Shown here: positions 13,544-62,244 of the stretch, in pieces | Numbering within the stretch: position 1 is the stretch's first letter | Layout of the letters: every line of letters begins with the position of its first letter | Origin: Hydrolagus colliei | Taxonomy: Eukaryota | Assembly: GCA_035084275.1 (NCBI GenBank) | Contig: CM068756.1 | Coordinates: 4,340,001-4,404,000 of the forward strand | Direction of reading: 5' to 3' | DNA length: 64,000 nucleotides | The notes under the pieces: generated by a model | Told to the model about the DNA's origin: nothing | What the model saw: the letters and a program-made list of their open reading frames with translations, nothing else | Database searches by the model: none | Program-made: the position numbers and the translations under genes

Positions 13544-16500
13544 AAAGACATATTTTGCCCAGCAGCATGGATATGCTCTAGTCACATTGAGCTCAGTGCT
13601 ATGAGGGGTGAGAGGTCCTGTTGCTTCTCCAATGAAGTGCCATTGGCATGTTTGTCCGCTGGCTGTAACTTTGGTGTGCCACTGCATGGTGCTGTGGAAA
13701 AAGCATCTGCTTCAAGTACCGTTTAACAGATGTGTGAGCTTCTGTGAGGCTCCATTATAGCTGACTGGAACTGTTTGCCTTAAGAGATAAAAGCTGGCCC
13801 ACATTCCTACTTGTTTTTAAGATCAAACAATAAAACTTTCATGGCAATAAACTAGATTAACCAATGTTTTCTCAGTGTTTACCCGCATTAGAGCTTTGGC
13901 TCATGTTGTCCGATGCTGAATTCAAATCAAACAGCACTTCACAAGGAGAAGAAAATGTGGTGTTAAGGTGGAACCCATTTTTAATGTTAGAATTTAATAT
14001 ATTGGTCTGATTAGTATAACAAGAAGAAAATCTTTGGAGTTTTCCAAATAGTTTAGTCACCTAGAGGAATCTTGAAGGCTAATTTGCAAATAAATGAGCG
14101 GATATAGACCACAGATGGGTGTTTTTATGTCACATGATAATCAAGCACCATCTGGTAGCAGACAATTCTATTAATTAACCTTCAGGATTCATTTTAAAGT
14201 TTTACACAGAGATCTTTACATTATATACTATTCTCTGAAGCTCTTTTAAATTTTTTTTAAAAAACTGGCTTGATTAGTCAGTTCTATTATTATTTTCCAG
14301 TGCAAGCAGCTGGCTTTGGGTGAGCAGAAGGGAAACCACAGATCTTAGTGAGGAAGGAGACTAATGCCTAATAGAAAGCCAATCTGGGAATGTTTTTCAG
14401 ATGGTTTTGCAAACCCTCCACCCCCCTCCCTCACCACCATGAGAAAGTTCAGGACCTTAACACTAGTTTGCACAGTAGTTAATGATCTTGTGAGAGAATG
14501 TTCGAGGGTGGTTGTTTATGGGAAATTGCTGGGATGACCACAATGCCACCTGTGCAGAAAAGTATCATTCATTTCATTTCCCATCAATGTTATTTGGGGG
14601 ATTTGAGATGTTTATTTTTATGCGAAAAGGTGCTGTATAATTGCAGCTTATGCAGCTTGAATTGTTTCTGAACTGTAAGGTGCCCCTGATTTGAAAGTGC
14701 TACCATACTATTGTGATTCCAAATATACACTGAGCAATATTAGAAAAAGTTGGAGTCAGTGACTGTGGTCTATGGTTCAAGAGCTGCTGTTTAATGTATG
14801 CGCTGTGGTGTGGTGAAGTGTGGTGCTGGACTACTTGTGTTGAAACGTGTCATTTTTACTTTGAATTCTCTTGTCGCAACTCACTGCTGCTGTCTCGAAT
14901 TCCCACGGTACAACCTCCTGAGGACAACCCAATAATCATACGTTAGAAATCCGCTGCTCTCTCCATGCCTCACCAATCAAATAATCTATAACTTGTTGCT
15001 GCTTAATAGCCCTTAACAAGTCTTTAATGAGCCGAGCAGTCTGTTTCTCCAAATGCTAGCGAGAAGAATGGCGAGTTTCTCAAACAAGCTTTTAACAAGT
15101 TGGATATGCAGATTAAAAAGATGCTTTGAGTTGCCGGGGGGAAGAACCAGTTGGAATGATGCAGAGTCTGAAAAGGTTGTCCTGAAAACAGATGATTTTC
15201 TGAAGACGGTGAAAAGTTTGGAAAGATCTTCATGTGGTGATGTGATGAAAGGTTGTGAAGCTCGAGCCTGAAAGGATTGTCCTTGGGGATTTAAACTGAT
15301 AAGGAATAGTTTGTGTCAGAAAAAAGTAATTCAGAGTAATTGCTGGACTACAGCATAGGGAAATTGGAACATCTTAAGAGGTGCATCATTACAGTAGATG
15401 ACTTTCCTTCTTGAATGCGGAACAAGAAGAATCACACATCTGGAATTAAGGAACAAAAAAAATGCAATTCTCAGTGGAAAGGGATTTCCCCTTCCTTGTT
15501 TCTATAACCAGCTCCCCTTAAAAGACATATTTTGCCCAGCATGGATATGCTCTAGTCACATTGAGCTCAGTGCTATGAGGGGTGAGAGGTCCTGTTGCTT
15601 CTCCAATGAAGTGCCATTGGCATGTTTGTCCGCTGGCTGTAACTTTGGTGTGCCACTGCATGGTGCTGTGGAAAAAGCATCTGCTTCAAGTACCGTTTAA
15701 CAGATGTGTGAGCTTCTGTGAGACTCCATTATAGCTGACTGGAACTGTTTGCCTTAAGAGATAAAAGCTGGCCCACATTCCTACTTGTTTTTAAGATCAA
15801 ACAATAAAACTTTCATGGCAATAAACTAGATTAACCAATGTTTTCTCAGTGTTTACCCGCATTAGAGCTTTGGCTCATGTAGTCCGATGCTGAATTCAAA
15901 TCTAATAGCACTTTACAAGGAGAAGAAAATGTGGTGCTAAGATGGAACCCATTTTTAATGTTAGAATTTAATATATTGGTCTGATTAGTATAACAAGAAG
16001 AAAATCTTTGGAGTTTTCCAAATAGTTTAGTCACCTAGAGGAATCTTGAAGGCTAATTTGCAAATAAATGAGCGGATATAGACCACAGATGGGTGTTTTT
16101 ATGTCACATGATAATCAAGCACCATCTGGTAGCAGACAATTCTATTAATTAACCTTCAGGATTCATTTTAAAGTTTTACACAGAGATCTTTACATTATAT
16201 ACTATTCTCTGAAGCTCTTTTAAATTTTTTTTAAAAAACTGGCTTGATTAGTCAGTTCTATTATTATTTTCCAGTGCAAGCAGCTGGCTTTGGGTGAGCA
16301 GAAGGGAAACCAAAGATCTTGCTGAGGAAGGAGACTAATGCCTAATAGAAAGCCAATCTGGGAATGTTTTTCAGATGGTTTTGCAAACCCTCCACCCCCC
16401 TCCCTCACCACCATGAGAAAGTTCAGGACCTTAACACTAGTTTGCACAGTAGTTAATGATCTTGTGAGAGAATGTTCGAGGGTGGTTGTTTATGGGAAAT

Positions 16501-17494
16501 TGCTGGGATGACCACAATGCCACCTGTGTAGAAAAGTATCATTCATTTCATTTCCCATCAATGTTATTTGGGGGCTTTGAGACGTTTATTTTTATGCGAA
16601 AAGGTGCTGTATAATTGCAGCTTATGCAGCTTGAATTGTTTCTGAACTGTAAGGTGCCCCTGATTTGAAAGTGCTACCATACTATTGTGTTTCCAAATAT
16701 ACACTGAGCAATATTAGAAAAAGTTGGAGTCAGTGACTGTGGTCTATGGTTCAAGAGCTGCTCTTTAATGTATGCGCTGTGGTGTGGTGAAGTGTGGTGC
16801 TGGACTACTTGTGTTGAAACGTATCATTTTTACTTTGAATTCTCTTGTCGCAACTCACTGCTGCTGTCTCGAATTCCCACGGTACAATCTCCTGAGGACA
16901 ACCCAATAATCACACGTTAGAAATCCGCTGCTCTCTCCATGCCTCACCAATCAAATAATCTATAACTTGTTGCTGCTTAATAGCCCTTAACAAGTCTTTA
17001 ATGAGCCGAGCAGTCTGTTTCTCCAAATGCTAGCGAGAAGAATGGCGAGTTTCTCAAACAAGCTTTTAACAAGTTGGATATGCAGATTAAAAAGATGCTT
17101 TGAGTTGCCGGGGGGAAGAACCAGTTGGAATGATGCAGAGTCTGAAAAGGTTGTCCTGAAAACAGATGATTTTCTGAAGACGGTGAAAAGTTTGGAAAGA
17201 TCTTCATGTGGGGATGTGATGAAAGGTTGTGAAGCTCGAGCCTGAAAGGATTGTCCTTGGGGATTTAAACTGATAAGGAATAGTTTGTGTCAGAAAAAAG
17301 TAATTCAGAGTAATTGCTGGACTACAGCATAGGGAAATTGGAACATCTTAAGAGGTGCATCATTACAGTAGATGACTTTCCTTCTTGAATGCGGAACAAG
17401 AAGAATCACACATCTGGAATTAAGGAACAAAAAAAATGCAATTCTCAGTGGAAAGGGATTTCCCCTTCCTTGTTTCTATAACCAGCTCCCCTTA
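13544..17494. repeat. Direct tandem duplication, ~1.97-kb unit (13544-15520, 15521-17494), ~99% identical
   Basis: Identical ORF-track entries offset by 1974 nt; about 20 substitutions and a 3-bp indel by eye. Confidence 0.95.
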
Positions 17495-29550: not shown

Positions 29551-30630
29551 ACAACAACAACCACAACAATTTACATTTATAGAGCGCCTTTCACGTCGGG
29601 AGGACGTCCCAAGGCGCTGAACAAGAGGCGTGTGACCCGAGCTGGGAGGGGAGTGTTTGGGAAGGGGTGAAACACGAAGGGGAGGTGAAAGAGTTCGGGG
29701 TGGAACAAAAGGCACGATCGAAGAGGAAAGTCTTCAAACCGGCCTTGAAAGAGGAAAGGGAAGAAACGAAACGGAGGGATTGAGGGATGGCATTCCATAA
29801 GGTGGGAGCGGAGAAACTGAAGGCCCGGCCTCCGATGGTGGGGAGGTTCGGGCGGGGGGCTTGGAGCAGGCCAAGTCCTGATGAACGGAGGGTCCGGGTG
29901 GGTGTGTAGGGGGAGAGTAGATCGGTTAAGTAGGATGGGGCAAGGCTGTGTAAGGCCTTGTAGGTGAGGACGAGGATCTTAAACTCGATCCTCTGGAGGA
30001 TGGGGAGCCAGTGGAGACGGGTGAGGGTGGGGGTTATGTGGTCACGGAGGCGGGTGCGGGATAGTACACGGGCTGCAGAGTTTTGGATGGCCTGCAGCCT
30101 GTGAATGGAGGAACTGGGGAGGCCGACTAGGAGAGAATTTCCGTAATCCAGCCGTAAGGTGATGTACGCGTGCACGAGTGTTTCGGCAGCGCGGGGGGTA
30201 AGATAGTTGCGGAGCCTGGCAATGTTGCGCAGATGGAAATAGGCGGTGCCGGTCAAGGCGCGGATGTGGGGGAGGAAGGAAAGTTTTTGATCGAACATGA
30301 TGCCGAGGTTCCTGACTGGCTTTGTGAGGTGGAGAGTGCAGCCTTGGATGTTCAGGTTGGCAGCGCCCGATGTGCGGAGGCGCTGGCTTGAGCCAATCAG
30401 GAGGGCCTCAGTCTTATTCACGTTCAATTGCAAAAAGTTGTCCCTCGTCCACGATTCGATGTCGGACAGACATGCTGTCAGAACATCGATCGTCTGGGGG
30501 TTGAGGGATGAGGCAGAAAGGTACAACTGGGTGTCATCTGCATACATGTGGAAATTTACCCCATGTCTGCGGATGACGTCGCCCAGAGGGAGCGTGTAAA
30601 GGGTGAAAAGGAGGGGACCGAGGACAGAGC
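29551..30630 (-). mobile_element. 5'-truncated L2 (LINE2) retrotransposon with an uninterrupted C-terminal RT frame
   Basis: SVLGPLLF...[10 protein letters not shown]...LNVNKTE...RLDYGNSLL...LHWLP; 3' stem-loop AGCGCCTTGGGACGTCCTCCCGACGTGAAAGGCGCT and (TTG)n tail. Confidence 0.95.
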
Positions 30631-33552
30631 TTTTTGATCTGATATCAAGTATGTCTAAATGGAAAACAATTAAACCTTCAGGTAAGCTGCCAAATTCAGT
30701 TAGTACTTTGCAATGTTAAACTGCAAATAGCAGTTAACAACTCCACAACCATATGAAACATATTTAGTCTTACAGTGGGTTTCTAGCAGTGGAATTAAGG
30801 AACTAGACTGCAGTCATGTGAAAGTATTAAGGGAACCATGCAGTTCATGAATTAGATTGAGTTAAGGATTAGCATGCTGCTTTAATGGGAAGATTTGGTG
30901 GATACTCTGGAAGGATGAGATTGAATGGGTGAAAGGGCTTTCTGTGTTCCTATCTCTCTTGTGCTTTTGTGTGTAGAGGGGGTTAACTCCAGCATAGATA
31001 CAACACAATTTACATTTATATAACATCTGTCATGTCGGGAGATCATCTCAATGGCTTTGCTTTGTGCTGTAAACGCACTATCAATTGGTGGCCTTTCATT
31101 CTGACATTGAAAATTTTATGAGAAAGTTTTATGATTTCAAGCTTCTTAACAAGTTGGTTACTTCTACTTTCTATATTTTGCTCAAGAGAGGCAGAAGATT
31201 AATTGACAGTAATAGTATCTACAAGCACAGGAATGAATGCTTGTGAAGTAATATGTTTTGCTTAAAACCCTTGGTCCCTAAACAGCTAGAATTGCCTGAT
31301 GCTCGATAGATTGCATAATCTTAGTGCAACAATATGGGGAGATTCGATGAAACTTGCAGATGAATTTCATCGCAGTGTTTCAAATACCAGCAGGAGTTTT
31401 GCATTCGTATTCATATGCAATTCGAATGAATTCATATGAATACGTATGAATTCATATCGGTCAAGTTAGTTTAGCCACATTTTCAAATTGTAGGGTTCAT
31501 TGCCAAAGTGATTGAATGAGTTTCTAAGAGAAATGTTAAGCAGCGAAGCAGTTTTCTTTCAATTGAAATACCGTAACAATATAATGCTGATATATTCTGG
31601 CATATTCAAAGTGGGCTGCAATACAGACTTCTCGTATCACAATAAAGATTTGCTTGCTGTCCATTTTCATACATTGACAACTTGATATTTCCAATTTACC
31701 AGGCTTAAATTTCCCAATATGATGTTTGCGAAACAGAAGGGGCCATTAACACAAACGGGTGGTTGTGAGTATTGCACAATACAACTGTCCCCCGTTCCCC
31801 ACCCCCACCCATGCCACGAACAAAACATTCAATATAGTAAAATATCCTTCACTTCACAAACCAATTGCATTTGATATCTTTGACACAATGAATCAAACAG
31901 CAGTCGAATTGTCACAGAGAGATTACATTAACTGAGCACAGCTAACAAGCCATATTGATCATGCAAAACCCACAACTTTCTATATCATTTGTATAGCGTC
32001 CTTCATGCAGGAAAGTGTCTCAGATGCTAGACCACACCATTCCACTGCAAGTGAGAGACAGCAGCTTTGGAAAATCAGAGCTATAAAAACACAGAGCCAA
32101 GGGAAAACTACAAACAGCGATGTGAAGACTCATAATGAGGTCTACTTCTATCAAGTCTGGAGAGATGACAAAGCCCCCACCCCCCAAAGACTCCATAAAA
32201 TGTACAGGCTTCAAAGCATTAAGTGCTGCATGTGCCTAATACAAGTCACTGCAGTGGGCAGTTTCAAAAGTACTTTTGATCTCTAATCCGCTTAGCTCCG
32301 CATTTGCATGTTACAAAATGAAGGGGAAAGGCAAAATGTTTGATGATGTACATTTGCATCTAGAACTCTCTTAATTTTCTGTGATTTTTGTGTTAATCAA
32401 GAAGAAACTCTCATCAAGCAATTGACACAAATCCACTCGGCAGTGTACATCCACAATGACAGGCTCTCACAACTTGTCCCTTCCTCCACCGATTTGCGCC
32501 GGGATGGAACTACTTTTCATCATATTTTCCTGCAACGTTTGACCCCCCTCACTCCCCACCCACCCCTCCCAAACTTTCAAAGCAGCATATTAATGAAGGT
32601 GAGATACGCACCCCCACCCCCCCCACCCCCCCCAATTAAACAAACGTATCTCCAACCTTTCAAGACTGCGTGCAATTACAGTGCAGAAAATGACAGTGAG
32701 CCCCAACATTTCTGTTCTAAATCTTATTGAATGTTGCTGATCAAAACAAATTGTCACTTCGAGACTACTCCACAGCAACAAAACCTGAAAGGATTTATTT
32801 TAAGAAGGCATTTGGTGTACAGCAAGGTTTGAAATCTTAGTTGCTTTACTTATAACCAATGGCTGCTTGACTGTGTGGGTTAGACTTAAAGTTCCATTGG
32901 CTTCATTAACACAAACCAAACACCAGCATTGCTACAGGAGGAGAAATTTCAACAAAGGTCTAAACTTACATTGTTTTCCTAGGATGATGAAGCATAGAGA
33001 ATTAGACAAATTCTTTAAATTCAGCCCTAATTTTCAGATCTCAAATGATGCATCGTAATTAAGACTGATGTAAAAATGCCTGATGAACTTTGCTTGTATT
33101 AAATAAAATTAAAATTTAAGAGCGTACTTTATAAAGGTATTCAAGTGATGACTTGAATTCAATGTCATTTATTACTTGAGCAGTATTCTGCCTGGAATTT
33201 ACAATTACATTCCTCTGATGGCTGCAAAATCGCAGTGTTATCTCTCCTTCAATTCCCGAGTGGTATCCTTTCATTAACCTGGTACTAATATTGTGTTAAC
33301 CTTGTGCACTGCAAACAGTTACTGAAGTTAAAATCAGATTCCAGTAATCAGACCATTATACAGTATTGCAGCTATTATAAAGCACTCTGCGATGCTGCCC
33401 TGTGTAAGGGCACCATATAGATGCATGTACTTGTTGTTGCAGCTAATTTCTTTGAATGTGGTCGGGATGTTTTGCACGACTGATGTCCACAAAACCTACT
33501 GACAGTGACTGGTATTATTGCAGAATATTTTTCACTGTGTTGTCTTATAAAT

Positions 33553-41758: not shown

Positions 41759-42560
41759 ATGATGGAGAACCAAAGCCTGGTGGATGCCAATGCATCTGCC
41801 TGGGGTGTGGAGAGATCTGTGCAAGAGGCGGCGGCGGTGGCTGCCACCATCAAAACGTGTCTCATTGTAGCGCTGGGCGGTTTGATCATCCTGGGCAACA
41901 CTGCGGTCATCATGGTCATCTCCTCCTCGGTGTCTGGATGGTCCAAAAACAGCCGCTACGTCCTGATCTCCCTGACCGGCGCCGACGCCGCCTTGGCTCT
42001 GATAGTCATCCCCCTGAACCTGTATGGGAGCCGGGTCCCTGAGCTCAGACGTCAGTTGGACCCTCCCTTCTGTCACCTGGCTGTCTTCCTCAACTCCAGC
42101 GTCCTCACCTCCTCCATCTACTCCCTAGCCACCATCAGCATCGAGCGCTACATCGCCGTCTTCTACCCTCTCAGGTACGCCTTCCTGATGACCAGTGTCA
42201 GGATCAAAGCCCTCATCGCCCTGGCTTGGCTGATGCCGCCCGTCCTCATGCTGCCCATCTCGGTGCCCGGGGGGGTGGTCCAAGTCTACTTCTCCGGATC
42301 GTCCTTGATCTGCAACTTGGATTTTTCCAGCAACCTGCCTTACTCCGTGACTCTGACCACCTTGGTCTTCTTCCCCTGCTCCCTCATCATGACCTTCGCC
42401 AACTTCCGCCTCTGGTTCGCAGCCAGGAGTCACCTCAACCGGTTCAAACCCTCCAAAGTGGGCAGGCGAAGGCACGATTCGGCCTCCAGGATTCTGGTGC
42501 CTGTGGTTATGGTCTATTACACCTGCTGGACCCCCTGTGTCTGCAACATCCTCTACCAGG
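41759..42560 (+). CDS. Orphan class A (rhodopsin-like) GPCR, GPR21/GPR52-like, coding exon 1 (TM1-TM6)
   Basis: ORF MMENQSL... with N-glycosylation sequons (NQS, NAS), TM1 GN, TM2 SLTGAD, TM3 C...ERY, TM4 W, TM5 FFP and TM6 CWTP. Phase-1 donor CAGG|GTGAGT at 42560/42561. Confidence 0.93.
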
Positions 42561-42759
42561 GTGAGTATCTGTCCTTCGGGTGAGATGTTAAACTGAGGTC
42601 CTCTTGGCAGGTTTGGGTGGAATGTTAAGGACCCATCGCTTGGCACTGTTTGAAAAGGAGAGTTTCTTTTTCTCTCACTCTCGCTCTCTGTATCCTAGCT
42701 AATAATCAACCCCCACCCACCCAAATAAAATTGGTTACTCGCTCCAAGGGTGTGAAAAT

Positions 42760-58000: not shown

Positions 58001-59749
58001 CTGTCCACTGATTAAGGCTTCAGTAAACTAAAAAAAACAATAAAACAATTAACTTTGACCAGTTTGTGAGGTTCTCAGATGTGCACAGCTTCATTCAGCT
58101 AAATAGACGACAACAACAGTAGTAATGAGGTAAAGGTGACACATGTAGGACAAAGGAGGAAGGAAAATCAGAATCCACGTTACCCCTGTCTGCTCTCACA
58201 CGCTTCCCAAACCACAAAGGTCAGGCTGACGCAAATCCTACAAGGCAATTCCCTCCCAACTCTCCCAGGATGTGGAACGTTATGTGGCAAGAAGCCTCAT
58301 AAAATGCATGTGGGGAAATAAAACACAAATCTAAACAGCCACTGTGACCTTCTCCAATTTCAAGAACTGAAACAGAAAACTCACCATTTAATTAAAGAGA
58401 ACTAGCAAAGGGCATGTGTTTTGTATTAATAGAAATTGTAAGTTCCAAACTAAAGATTCTTCTCAGGTAAAAGGCCAAGTACGAGCAGGAGAATTAGCCA
58501 CAAACACAAATAGTGCCCTCAATGGAGAGGTTGGTGGTTTGGTTACAGTTCAAGATCTCTTACTCCACCCCCTTCATTCAGTGGAAGTAAAAAATCTTTC
58601 CTACTGTAAGCATACACATCAGACTTACAGTGTTTACATTGTTTAGAGGAATTACTTTCCTGATAAGAAACCCATTGGAATCAAGTCACATTTCTGTAGA
58701 AAATTGTCTATAAGAACACAGTATTGTACAGGACTGGAAAAGAGCATTATGGTTCATTTGGCCAGACCCAACGTAATATTTGTAACACATGCTCAGGCAC
58801 AGCGGTTGTATTTAGAAACGTCTCATTCCTCTTTCTCCCGCCCCCACCACGCCACCCACTCCATGACGCCACATGTCTGTACATCAACAGCATTTCGTGG
58901 CTAAACTGAAATACAATTGGAGCAAGTCTTGTCCTTGTGACTAGACTAAAGGTTTCCTCGTGTCTAGACTAAAGGAAGTCAAGAGAGACACATCAATTGT
59001 GGCCATTTCACAACTCAATGACTTCAGTTATATCTACTTTTTGGCAAAATTACAAAATACAAAAAAGCGCTCACTGATATGATACACTAGTCCAATCACT
59101 GAACCCAGACACTATCAAGTCAGATTCAGATATTGGTGGAGGTACTGAGGAGGGTGTTAATCAATCGGTGGAATTTTTCATAAAATGTTTCATTTTTCTG
59201 TGCCCAAATCTTTGTAGTCACAGTAAACATACTGTACTCGCAGTGTACCATGTGGTTTACTTACCTTGAGTCTTATTATCAGGCGAATGTTTCAGAATTC
59301 AGAATGTATTCAGAATTCTTCAAACCCACTTTCTAATGTGTATGAAAGGGACATACTGTACATGTAGAACTGCATTTGGTATGTAGGGCCTTTCACGTCG
59401 GGAGGATATCACCAAGCGTTTCAAATAGGATATATATTATATAATGTGTAATGATTGTGGATTTTTTTGAACAAAACTGGTTTCCTGTACTGTAATTGTT
59501 TCTCTCACTGGGAGCCTGTGAATAGATAGAAAGGTTTCAGTGTTGTTTGTTAATGGGGTGGGGGTGGGTGCTGCCTGAAAGAACAATAGGAAGACCACTG
59601 TCCCTCATCCCTATTCTGCTGCTGATTATTTAGTGTTTGTAATGATTATTTCCACACTTGGAAAATAGATGTCAGGTCACATTTAAGAAATTCAACTTTT
59701 CAAAATTCTCATCCATTTTGTGCCATTTCTCTTCAATTATAACCATCGT

Positions 59750-60046
59750 GGTATCCTGTAGCACTCGCCTCGCAGGAGAGAGACCTCGGTTAGTTTCCGG
59801 CAAGTAGAAATCATGGGCAAGATTCCTTACTCCCCATGCCTGATAATAATCCCTGAAGGGAAAAAAAATCAATCTTCACTTTAATGCGTTAGATAATGCA
59901 TTACATCTGGTCACTTCAATCCACGACTGTTTTGGGGACACTGTTGTATACTGATGTATTTCTTCCACAAATATACAGTAGATTTACTTTACATTATATT
60001 GTGTGAAGTGCCTTGAAACATCTCGAAGACGTGAAAAGTGCTATAT
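59750..60046 (+). mobile_element. tRNA-derived SINE split by a 1.77-kb insertion; tail resumes at 61821-61885
   Basis: Ends abruptly at AAAAGTGCTATAT; the missing CAAAxxCAAGG(ATT)n tail is found after 61859. Confidence 0.85.
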
Positions 60047-60761
60047 GTTGGCTGCTGCCAATGTTATTGTTCGGGAAAATAGCCGGTGGGAATGACCGAC
60101 CGCTGCCGAGAGGAGACAAGTCTGTTTAATTGTGAAGAAGCCGTTTAATTGCTTTCGGTGCAGTTGCGAGACGCTGCAGTCTGGCGGATTGAGAGGTCAC
60201 CGTGACTGTGTGCTAGTACTGGACATGATTTTCCAGGATGTTCTAGGAACTCCACGTACTTGGAAAAACTCAACTGGCTGACCGTGTACCCGTTGGAAAT
60301 GAATAACTCCATTCAACTAACTTGCTGTGATTGCAACTATTTGAACAAAAGCCACGTTTGTGTGATGTCAAACATTTACACGCGCACCTAAGGAGTGCAG
60401 GTCCAGACAAGCGTTTGGGAGATGTAGATATACAATGGTTATGGGAATGTCTGGTCTTTTAGCCCTTTAACATTCAACATCTATCCCTTTAACATTCAAC
60501 AGTAGAACCTTTTGCGACAGATCAGGTGCCAAGAGACACTAATGATATTTGCTTGCCATAGACCAATTGATTCTGATCAGATTCCTGAAATATGATCAGA
60601 TTTCCTGAAGGAAATTTGATTAGAATTACTGAACCGTAGCTTGGAAAATGTGAAGAATCTTTAGTTTTCTTATCCACTGTCCTAGAGCCGATTTGTAGGA
60701 CATCCAACAGCCCGATGAGAACTCCACCACCAGTGAATTCAAAACCTTTAATGAAATATTA

Positions 60762-61068
60762 ATAATAGTTCTTCCATTTGCTATAGCGCTTTCCATGTCT
60801 TCTAGATGTGTCAGAGCACTTCACAGAATATACTGTAAAGTGAATTGACTGTATATTTGTGGGTTAAACGTGGCAGCCAATGGCACACAGCAGTGTCCCA
60901 CAAACAATCGTGGATTGAGTGATCAAATTATTATTGTGTTTTTTTTCTTGAGAAATTATTATCAGGTGTACGGAGTAAGGAAACTTGCTCTAGGTTTCAC
61001 CCTGCTGGAAATGGAACCTAGGTCTCTTGCTTGCGAGCGCTGTAACCACTCACTGAGCTACAGGTTTC
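60762..61068 (-). mobile_element. tRNA-derived SINE carried inside the ZNF276-derived insert
   Basis: Same family on the reverse strand. Confidence 0.85.
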
Positions 61069-61473
61069 CACAGAAGAACTAAGGTCTAACACAAGATCTA
61101 ACTTCACAAGAATGCTTCCTAAATTGAGAATTTTGATGTCGACCCAATATCCAGTAACTCAATGTTGCAACTCATTGCTAATACACCAATGTGCTGCAGC
61201 ACCAAAATCCTTTTCGCATCTTAAATACTGTATGTAAGGGAAGAAATAATACATGCTCTATTTTGATTTGTAAAACTAGCTGGTTTTGCAAGCCTCAATA
61301 TTTTAGTGAGTGCCCCAGAAATACATTTCTTTTAAATTGCCTTTTCTAAATGTGTCGGTAATTTTAATACAGTATACATGATGAACTTCCTCAAATATTA
61401 GTTCTCAGCATAGTTTACACACAATAACAAATGGTAATCTTTTAAAGCAAAATTTCTCCCCCTTTTCTATCAG

Positions 61474-61792
61474 CTGCACCTACTGTTGTGACCACTAGCT
61501 ACTGCCGCCTCTGCCATGGCAAGTTTTCCTCCAGGAGTTTGCGGAATGTCTTTGCAAAGGTTCCTCTGATTGACGCAAATCCAGAGAGGCAACGAAGAGC
61601 ACAACAGATCTTCTGTGCCGATTTCCAGAGACTGGTTGGCATTGTGGTAAGGCAGGACCCCACCTTGCCCCAGTTTATCTGTAGGAACTGTCACACTCAG
61701 TTTTATAAATGCCGGAGTATCCTGCGAAACTTCATTCAACGAGTGAATTCTTCTCCCATGGCCCCCGTACAACGAGGACAAGAGGCGGGCAG
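61474..61792 (+). CDS. ZNF276: Isolated ZNF276-derived zf-AD (ZAD) exon; a duplicated gene fragment of unknown expression status
   Basis: Open frame YCRLCHGKFSSRSLR...DFQRLVGIVVRQDPTLPQFICRNCHTQFYKCRSILRNFIQRVN matches the ZNF276 N-terminal ZAD as recalled (CxxC...CxxC). Polypyrimidine+CAG acceptor at 61473; AG|GTAC donor at 61792. No other ZNF276 exons are recognisable in the window. Confidence 0.85.
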
Positions 61793-62140
61793 GTACCTAA
61801 AGACCAGATGATTAATGTGTGTGCCTTGAAACATCTCAAAGACGTGAAAAGTGCTATATCAAACACAAGGATTATTATTATGTATTATTATTGTTGTGAA
61901 TATTCAACGGTGCTCAAATGGTTAACAAACCGGCATTTGCAAACAGAGATGTACCTTTGGATGTTGCTCTCTGCACCTCTGCATATTATTAGCGACATAT
62001 TCTGTGATTCAGCCAAGAGATAATGCATTTCAATGTTCCGGTTTAGATCCAATTTGACTTTATCACAGGAAGAGATACAGAGCGAACACAAACAGAGAAA
62101 GTTTAAGGACTTGTATTTTTCCCATTCACAGACGGAGAAA

Positions 62141-62244
62141 ATGTGGATATCAGTCTTTCTTTTATGCCTTTTTACTCTCACTTCTGCAGATGAGTTCAAT
62201 ATGCGGGCAGAGAAACTGATGTCAACCAATCCTCTTATAGACGG
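62141..62244 (+). CDS. DPEP1: Dipeptidase 1 (membrane dipeptidase, M19), coding exon 1 with signal peptide
   Basis: MWISVFLLCLFTLTSA signal peptide, then ...PLIDG; acceptor 9 nt upstream of the ATG (exon starts 62132); donor GG|GTGAGT, phase 2. Confidence 0.92.

Follow-up and report, generated by a model that had tools for sequence, protein, structure and literature searches.

A copy of ZNF276 exon 2 inside a split SINE upstream of DPEP1 in Hydrolagus colliei, probably left by a local template switch

Copy-and-paste rearrangements, in which a small template is joined to a larger one, have been described in several systems. In the cancer genomes of Li et al. (2020, PMC7025897), strings of joints that return to re-replicate a segment of the host are termed 'cycles', and strings with local templates 'local n-jumps'. 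As far as that account sets them out, the cases are somatic, cycles typically draw their templates from other chromosomes, and local two-jumps of the named classes have inverted joints. Animal captures into pre-existing elements show a cis bias and short microhomology: single-copy Pack-TIRs, as portrayed in part of PMC8277862, acquire nearby non-TE sequence in an older element by transposition-independent gap filling, 57% of them lying within 15 kb of the parent, with a median microhomology of 2 bp and an insert-free element in outgroups. Human templated sequence insertion polymorphisms (TSIPs) are heritable copies of unique sequence with an intact donor, and those of class 1 carry a site duplication of at least 5 bp, typically 5–15 bp (PMC5110952, as outlined there). 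Finally, the de novo germline templated insertions, dispersed duplications and DUP-NML-DUP structures of PMC12583596 can, in its description, show a pair of duplicated segments that enclose single-copy DNA.

Here we describe a locus of the chimaera H. colliei, located in a stretch of 64,000 nucleotides that is referred to as the window (contig CM068756.1, positions 4,340,001 to 4,404,000), in which an old SINE is interrupted by a copy of part of ZNF276 and a short SINE segment is present on both sides of the copy. Like the local two-jumps and cycles of PMC7025897, this is a copy-and-paste structure with a small template joined to a larger one, two joints that are phased in the assembly and a re-replicated host segment; unlike the cases described there, it is germline, occurs in a fish, spans 20 kb and has two direct joints. 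With the single-copy Pack-TIRs it shares the capture of nearby non-TE sequence in an older element, but the element interrupted here is a SINE instead of a TIR transposon, and some of its bases are duplicated where, by the account in PMC8277862, gaps are found between the Pack-TIR breakpoints. The duplication at the site resembles TSIP class 1 and the microhomology class 2. However, the poly(A) or poly(A) signal of class 1 is absent, and in contrast to class 2 there is a duplication instead of a microdeletion and the donor is near instead of distant, so that, judged from its sequence and from the classes as delineated in PMC5110952, the insertion fits neither. The inverted joints that define DUP-NML-DUP in PMC12583596 also differ from the direct joints observed here, where the duplicated segments measure only 39 bp and 1.8 kb. 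The class of event is known; for this particular locus, no published account was found in the open-access literature.

The host element, which we take to be a tRNA-type SINE with an L2-like tail, is an old copy that differs from the majority of local copies at 56 of 264 positions in its 5′ part (21%). This part, at 59750–60046 of the plus strand (5′ start approximate; profile match 59908–60046), is cut off at 60046 and lacks the tail, and a 39-mer plus the tail resume at 61821–61886. The 39-mers at 60008–60046 (+) and 61821–61859 (+) are identical at 38 positions and differ at one, and the second is followed by the remainder of the tail at 61860–61886 (+), which matches the family profile. On the SINE 3′-end profile the upstream piece corresponds to positions 1–146 and the downstream piece to 108–173, an overlap of 39 positions. 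Both 39-mers have in common several letters that are rare among the local family copies (60012C in 2/25, 60017A in 1/25, 60009T in 5/24 and 60024C in 4/23). The repeat, the profile overlap and these letters indicate that one SINE copy was split and partly duplicated, as had been proposed in the first-pass annotation of this DNA. Two independent SINEs were ruled out by the common rare letters together with an exact search of the 1.0-Gb genome, where a 30-base part of the 39-mer occurs at three places, i.e., in both 39-mers and in one C1 copy whose upstream letters are the family's usual ones. Since 3 bp at each end of the insert also occur in the donor flanks, the repeated host segment is 33–39 bp long; it is real, but the term target-site duplication, under which it was first listed, is better replaced by re-copied host segment. 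A sample of 544 kb of the assembly yielded 46 candidate pairs of split-SINE pieces, of which this locus alone has a near-identical duplication of at least 25 bp, the next-longest being 22, 12, 11 and 10 bp.

The first 39-mer spans the 3′ stem-loop of the family, which has decayed in this SINE copy: folding z-scores are −0.3 to −1.0, versus −4.2 and −5.8 for an intact family copy, and the RNA hairpin energy is −5.3 versus −26.1 kcal/mol for stretches of unequal length. A DNA hairpin or cruciform as the trigger of the event is unsupported (z −0.7 to +1.3 for this copy). The 3′ hairpin and tail of this SINE are present in several repeat families in the 544 kb sampled. Among 55 matches starting near the hairpin, 22 have flanks related to other such flanks, and others are short stubs in unrelated DNA.

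The insert (60047–61820, +; 1774 bp) begins in ZNF276 intron 1, of which it contains the 3′ part, and runs through exon 2 into intron 2. A genome search with the insert gave a single long match, the donor at G000:C23:4420286-4422059 (80286–82059 on the window scale), on the same strand and 20,239 bp downstream; the other matches (49/51) hit the inner SINE. The native, near-identical ZNF276 region that an insertion would predict is thus present, and copy and donor differ by nine substitutions in 1774 positions without any indel (0.5%; 99.5% identical). The flanks of the donor are unrelated to the SINE. All the contents ascribed to the insert at first reading were found, namely non-coding DNA, a SINE, an intact ZAD exon and 28 bp past its donor site, with no AATAAA or ATTAAA in the insert and no poly(A) at its ends. 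The second SINE (about 60755–61073, −) is inverted and was carried from the donor intron, where it is also present. The copy of exon 2 (61474–61792, +; 319 bp, phase 1 to 2) is identical to the exon in the native gene, has unchanged acceptor and donor sites, matches Pfam zf-AD (ZAD) with 1.7e-08 and is 89% to shark ZNF276, and the last 28 bp (61793–61820, +) are an intron 2 stub copied from the donor. ZAD exons occur at two places in the genome, both 100% at the protein level, and native ZNF276 is complete, with exons from 79611 to 88596 (window scale); the donor is therefore intact and the insert an extra copy. This is not the sole ZAD exon, and a nesting of DPEP1 in the native gene, raised as a possible objection, was ruled out since DPEP1 lies at 62141–70900 and the whole of ZNF276 at 79611–88596. 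A larger segmental duplication was likewise ruled out, as copy-donor identity ends at the microhomologies and no wider duplication was seen in a 144-kb self-comparison. A weak FANCA match on the minus strand (E 6e-4, under the cut-off) follows ZNF276.

Five of the nine copy-donor differences lie in the inner SINE, at 60781–61053. Counted as events, five of eight fall within 183 bp (p 0.02, post hoc), with derived letters in both copies. Six of the nine are located within 184 bp at 60656–60839, including a TG/CA pair at a CpG of the family.

The two joints are direct, not inverted, and neither contains untemplated bases. At the left joint the host ends with TAT (60044–60046, +), and the same TAT precedes the donor; at the right joint the donor continues with GTG, with which the second 39-mer begins. 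The right joint corresponds to profile positions 108–111, at the foot of the SINE 3′ hairpin. Microhomology of at least 3 bp at both joints has a P of about 0.003 for random joins, and a landing at random so near the source (within 22 kb) a P of about 4e-5. The joints are phased in the assembly; the contigs from the samples are short.

Read-derived short contigs from six of 17 runs were examined for the reality and zygosity of the insertion. X1 may be the assembly's own sample, X5 is a second sample and study of this species (organism A), and X6 is from a related species (organism B). In X1 a 94-bp contig (61769–61862) spans the right joint, with 52 letters on one side and 42 on the other, and in X5 a 57-bp contig (61794–61850) crosses it with 27 and 30 letters per side, under the 31-letter threshold. 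Contigs of both samples start exactly at 60044; X5 forks at 60044 and 61823, and contigs end at 61823. The contig ends at 61769 in X1 and at 60037, 61794 and 61850 in X5 are all four positions predicted for a k=31 graph with the insertion, positions that were computed after the contigs had been seen. The X5 ends at 60037 and 61850 are those expected if the 39-mers are identical there, which suggests a 39/39 duplication in X5 and a mismatch that arose later, on the window's haplotype. No contig in the six runs spans an empty site; the end of an X1 contig at 60046 was dismissed as evidence for an empty allele, as the C1 SINE has the same letters. In X5 the depths are 80–83 in the shared part, 24 at the junction, 34–38 in the flank and 50–52 in two other long contigs, and could reflect a heterozygous site; in X1 they are 53–55, 41 and 39–42 for shared part, junction and flank and fit neither zygosity model, contig depth being no copy number.

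An assembly artefact, either a misjoin between SINEs or a misplaced second haplotype of the ZNF276 intron, would agree with the 99.5% identity of copy and donor, which is near the allelic level (X5 and the window differ at 2 of 659 flank bases), and with the observation that among the contigs of the runs examined no single piece spans the whole insertion. It is nevertheless extremely improbable and largely refuted by the X1 contig that bridges the right joint and by X5, from another sample and study, which crosses this joint and forks at 60044 and 61823. As contigs of two samples break or cross the joints as an insertion predicts, misassembly is unlikely. The right joint is crossed in X1 and X5; no contig bridges the left joint. 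The insertion seems to be present in X5 too, where the variants linked to it differ.

In organism B (11 substitutions and six gaps in 516 bases, 7 substitutions in 197 and 9 in 237), a 695-bp contig of X6 runs past the donor end (61823) without a fork into 474 unlike letters, and another contig (61854–62049) contains the SINE tail and unique flank. The X6 contigs suggest that the insert is absent in organism B. X7 and X11 also pass the donor end unforked, but at a depth under 5. Because organism B has the SINE tail and an unforked donor end, and the SINE is 21% from the family majority, the insert is likely younger than the SINE, and the SINE likely predates the split of the species. With X5 differing from the window at 2/659 bases, part of the 0.5% copy-donor difference may be allelic. 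At the mutation rate of the epaulette shark, given as 7e-10 per generation in PMC10587355 and used as a rough proxy, a difference of 0.25% per copy corresponds to about 3.6 million generations, which is an upper bound. On the time scale of these species the insertion is young, yet not new; it had been called recent, which holds in a relative sense only, since a second sample appears to carry it with other linked variants.

The locus is probably the product of a single local two-jump template switch in germline replication or break repair. From a stalled fork or broken end inside the SINE, synthesis would have switched at a 3-bp match to nearby ZNF276, copied 1.77 kb of that gene and come back at another 3-bp match about 39 bases behind its exit point, so that the host segment was copied twice. 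The route may have been FoSTeS/MMBIR or synthesis-dependent gap filling, and the geometry would be that of a non-inverted local two-jump, or 'cycle of templated insertion'. The donor, its orientation, both joints and the repeat can be read directly at the locus; we infer that one event took place, that the template was DNA and that the copy has no function, and the copy is likely neutral. A DNA template is supported by the retained introns, the absence of a poly(A) signal or tail and the single donor on the same contig and strand. The initial description as a local, young, DNA-templated insertion is in this respect borne out by the native donor 20 kb away and the microhomology at both joints, with the template probably DNA. 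By itself, the sequence would fit equally well one event or a duplication plus a deletion, and a DNA or an RNA template.

An alternative in two steps would begin with the tandem duplication of 22 kb (60008 to 82062, including DPEP1 and ZNF276 exons 1–2); the first copy would then lose 20.2 kb by deletion and keep 39 bp and 1.77 kb. The two joints would be identical, with 3 bp of microhomology each, and the window also has a 1977-bp tandem duplication. Such a succession is distinctly unlikely, however, as the deletion must start within 39 bp of the start of the duplication, no further remnant of the 22-kb unit is found in the 144-kb self-comparison, and phased structures of this kind are argued in PMC7025897, from cancer data, to be mostly single events.

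If the template was RNA, which we regard as unlikely, synthesis by a LINE reverse transcriptase would have been primed where the SINE was broken. It would have followed this SINE's own transcript for 39 nt, up to the foot of the hairpin, moved by way of GTG to unspliced ZNF276 pre-mRNA for another 1.77 kb, and ended with the left end being joined through TAT. The right joint indeed adjoins a modest peak of SINE 5′ ends at profile positions 105–107: of the truncated, tail-reaching matches in 544 kb, counted after leaving out this locus and 24 matches with related flanks or from other families, 17 of 175 begin at 105–111 (2.4 versus 1.4 per position, p 0.02). However, the excess is absent among matches scoring at least 30 (6 versus 7.8 expected), and the hairpin has decayed in this SINE copy. 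The insert is in sense orientation and wholly within the ZNF276 transcription unit, 5′ microhomology is described as typical of truncated L1 inserts (PMC4245944), and human TSIs can, by the account in PMC5110952, derive from RNA; yet the insert is without tail, poly(A) or splicing. There is also no A-to-G excess: positions 60808 and 61383 read A in the donor and G in the copy, and G is likewise found there in the family (22/24) or in organism B. The repeat of 33–39 bp exceeds the typical target-site duplications of L1 (15 bp) and ZfL2-1 (5 bp), but LINE inserts with long duplications (>20 bp) exist and are treated as a recognised class in PMC4245944. A variant of the RNA route would start from a young LINE that lies before ZNF276 exon 1, the insert then being its 5′-truncated orphan 3′ transduction. 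The LINE fragment in question contains an RT domain, lies on the donor's strand and ends at 79130, which is 1.15 kb before the donor, but its reading frame is broken at about 78445, and a transduction leaves the landing 20 kb from the source unexplained. The unspliced transduction suggested in the first-pass annotation is thus disfavoured by the proximity of the source, the missing tail and poly(A) and the length of the duplication.

Several features of the surroundings were observed as well. The LINE fragment upstream of ZNF276 (L012:3726-5130; 77726–79130) is young, with 98% likeness to copies on other contigs, and ends about 480 bp before the ZNF276 start codon. An RT-bearing LINE fragment, found at 29553–30715 (−) of the window and near the start of L018, has a relative of 92% likeness 49 kb upstream. 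The tandem duplication at 13544–17494 is head-to-tail, with 98.9% identity between its units. An exon of a rhodopsin-family GPCR is located at 41759–42580 (+; 7tm_1 positions 1–225 of 260, E 6e-30), and this gene probably has two coding exons because a GT donor-like site precedes the stop. The gap between DPEP1 and ZNF276 is less than 9 kb (70900–79600) and consists mostly of repeats; none of 16 long ORFs from 64–80 kb matched a non-LINE family, and a Snf7 search gave no CHMP1A match on this contig among the best candidates. In human, several genes separate DPEP1 and ZNF276.

DPEP1 (62141–70900) lies between the copy and the donor and is 72–95% to elephant-shark dipeptidase 1 over most exons. 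Its first coding exon (62132–62244, +; predicted acceptor 62132, ATG 62141, donor 62245) is 80% to residues 1–35 of that protein. The exon has an acceptor-like site 9 nt upstream of its ATG, and 61860–62131 contains no donor-like site scoring above 3, so the insert may lie in a 5′ intron of DPEP1. The first exon of DPEP1 was not located, and nothing about it emerged from the literature; at 58465–58467 there are a candidate donor and an HNF4-like site, as scored with weights for splice and HNF4 sites. A run that was examined for expression, X17, yielded an intronic piece only.

The reading frame of the captured exon argues against the exon shuffling in progress that had been envisaged. At the acceptors 62132 and 62069 the ZAD frame of this exon (phase 1 to 2) is offset by 2 from that of DPEP1 and would stop after 134 or 155 codons, and its only ATG lies near the exon end, with no start ahead of the domain, so that no ZAD-dipeptidase fusion would follow. 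The exon contains four ATGs: two give short ORFs that end in the exon, a third starts an ORF that overlaps the DPEP1 start out of frame, and the fourth (61709) is in frame at the 62132 acceptor, where it would add 31 non-ZAD residues before the DPEP1 start. If spliced, the exon could add only upstream ATGs or this 31-residue extension, and at most the copy would be a pseudoexon in the DPEP1 5′ leader. A more far-reaching scenario would combine in-place repair of a break in the old SINE by a LINE reverse transcriptase (SINE transcript, run-off at the hairpin foot, jump to unspliced pre-mRNA) with splicing of the captured exon into the DPEP1 leader, where upstream ATGs and the 31-residue extension from a second ZNF276 frame would make it a segregating regulatory allele produced by cis RNA capture; we consider this very unlikely.

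Should RNA show the intact exon in the DPEP1 leader, the importance of the locus would be greater, and if captures throughout the genome start at the SINE hairpin, this would point to reverse transcription acting in place. As it stands, the locus provides a resolved germline example of a kind of local copy-and-paste rearrangement that has been described in human genomes, here in a cartilaginous fish and with the donor, the joints and the re-copied segment readable to the base, and it illustrates that a long apparent target-site duplication need not imply transposition.
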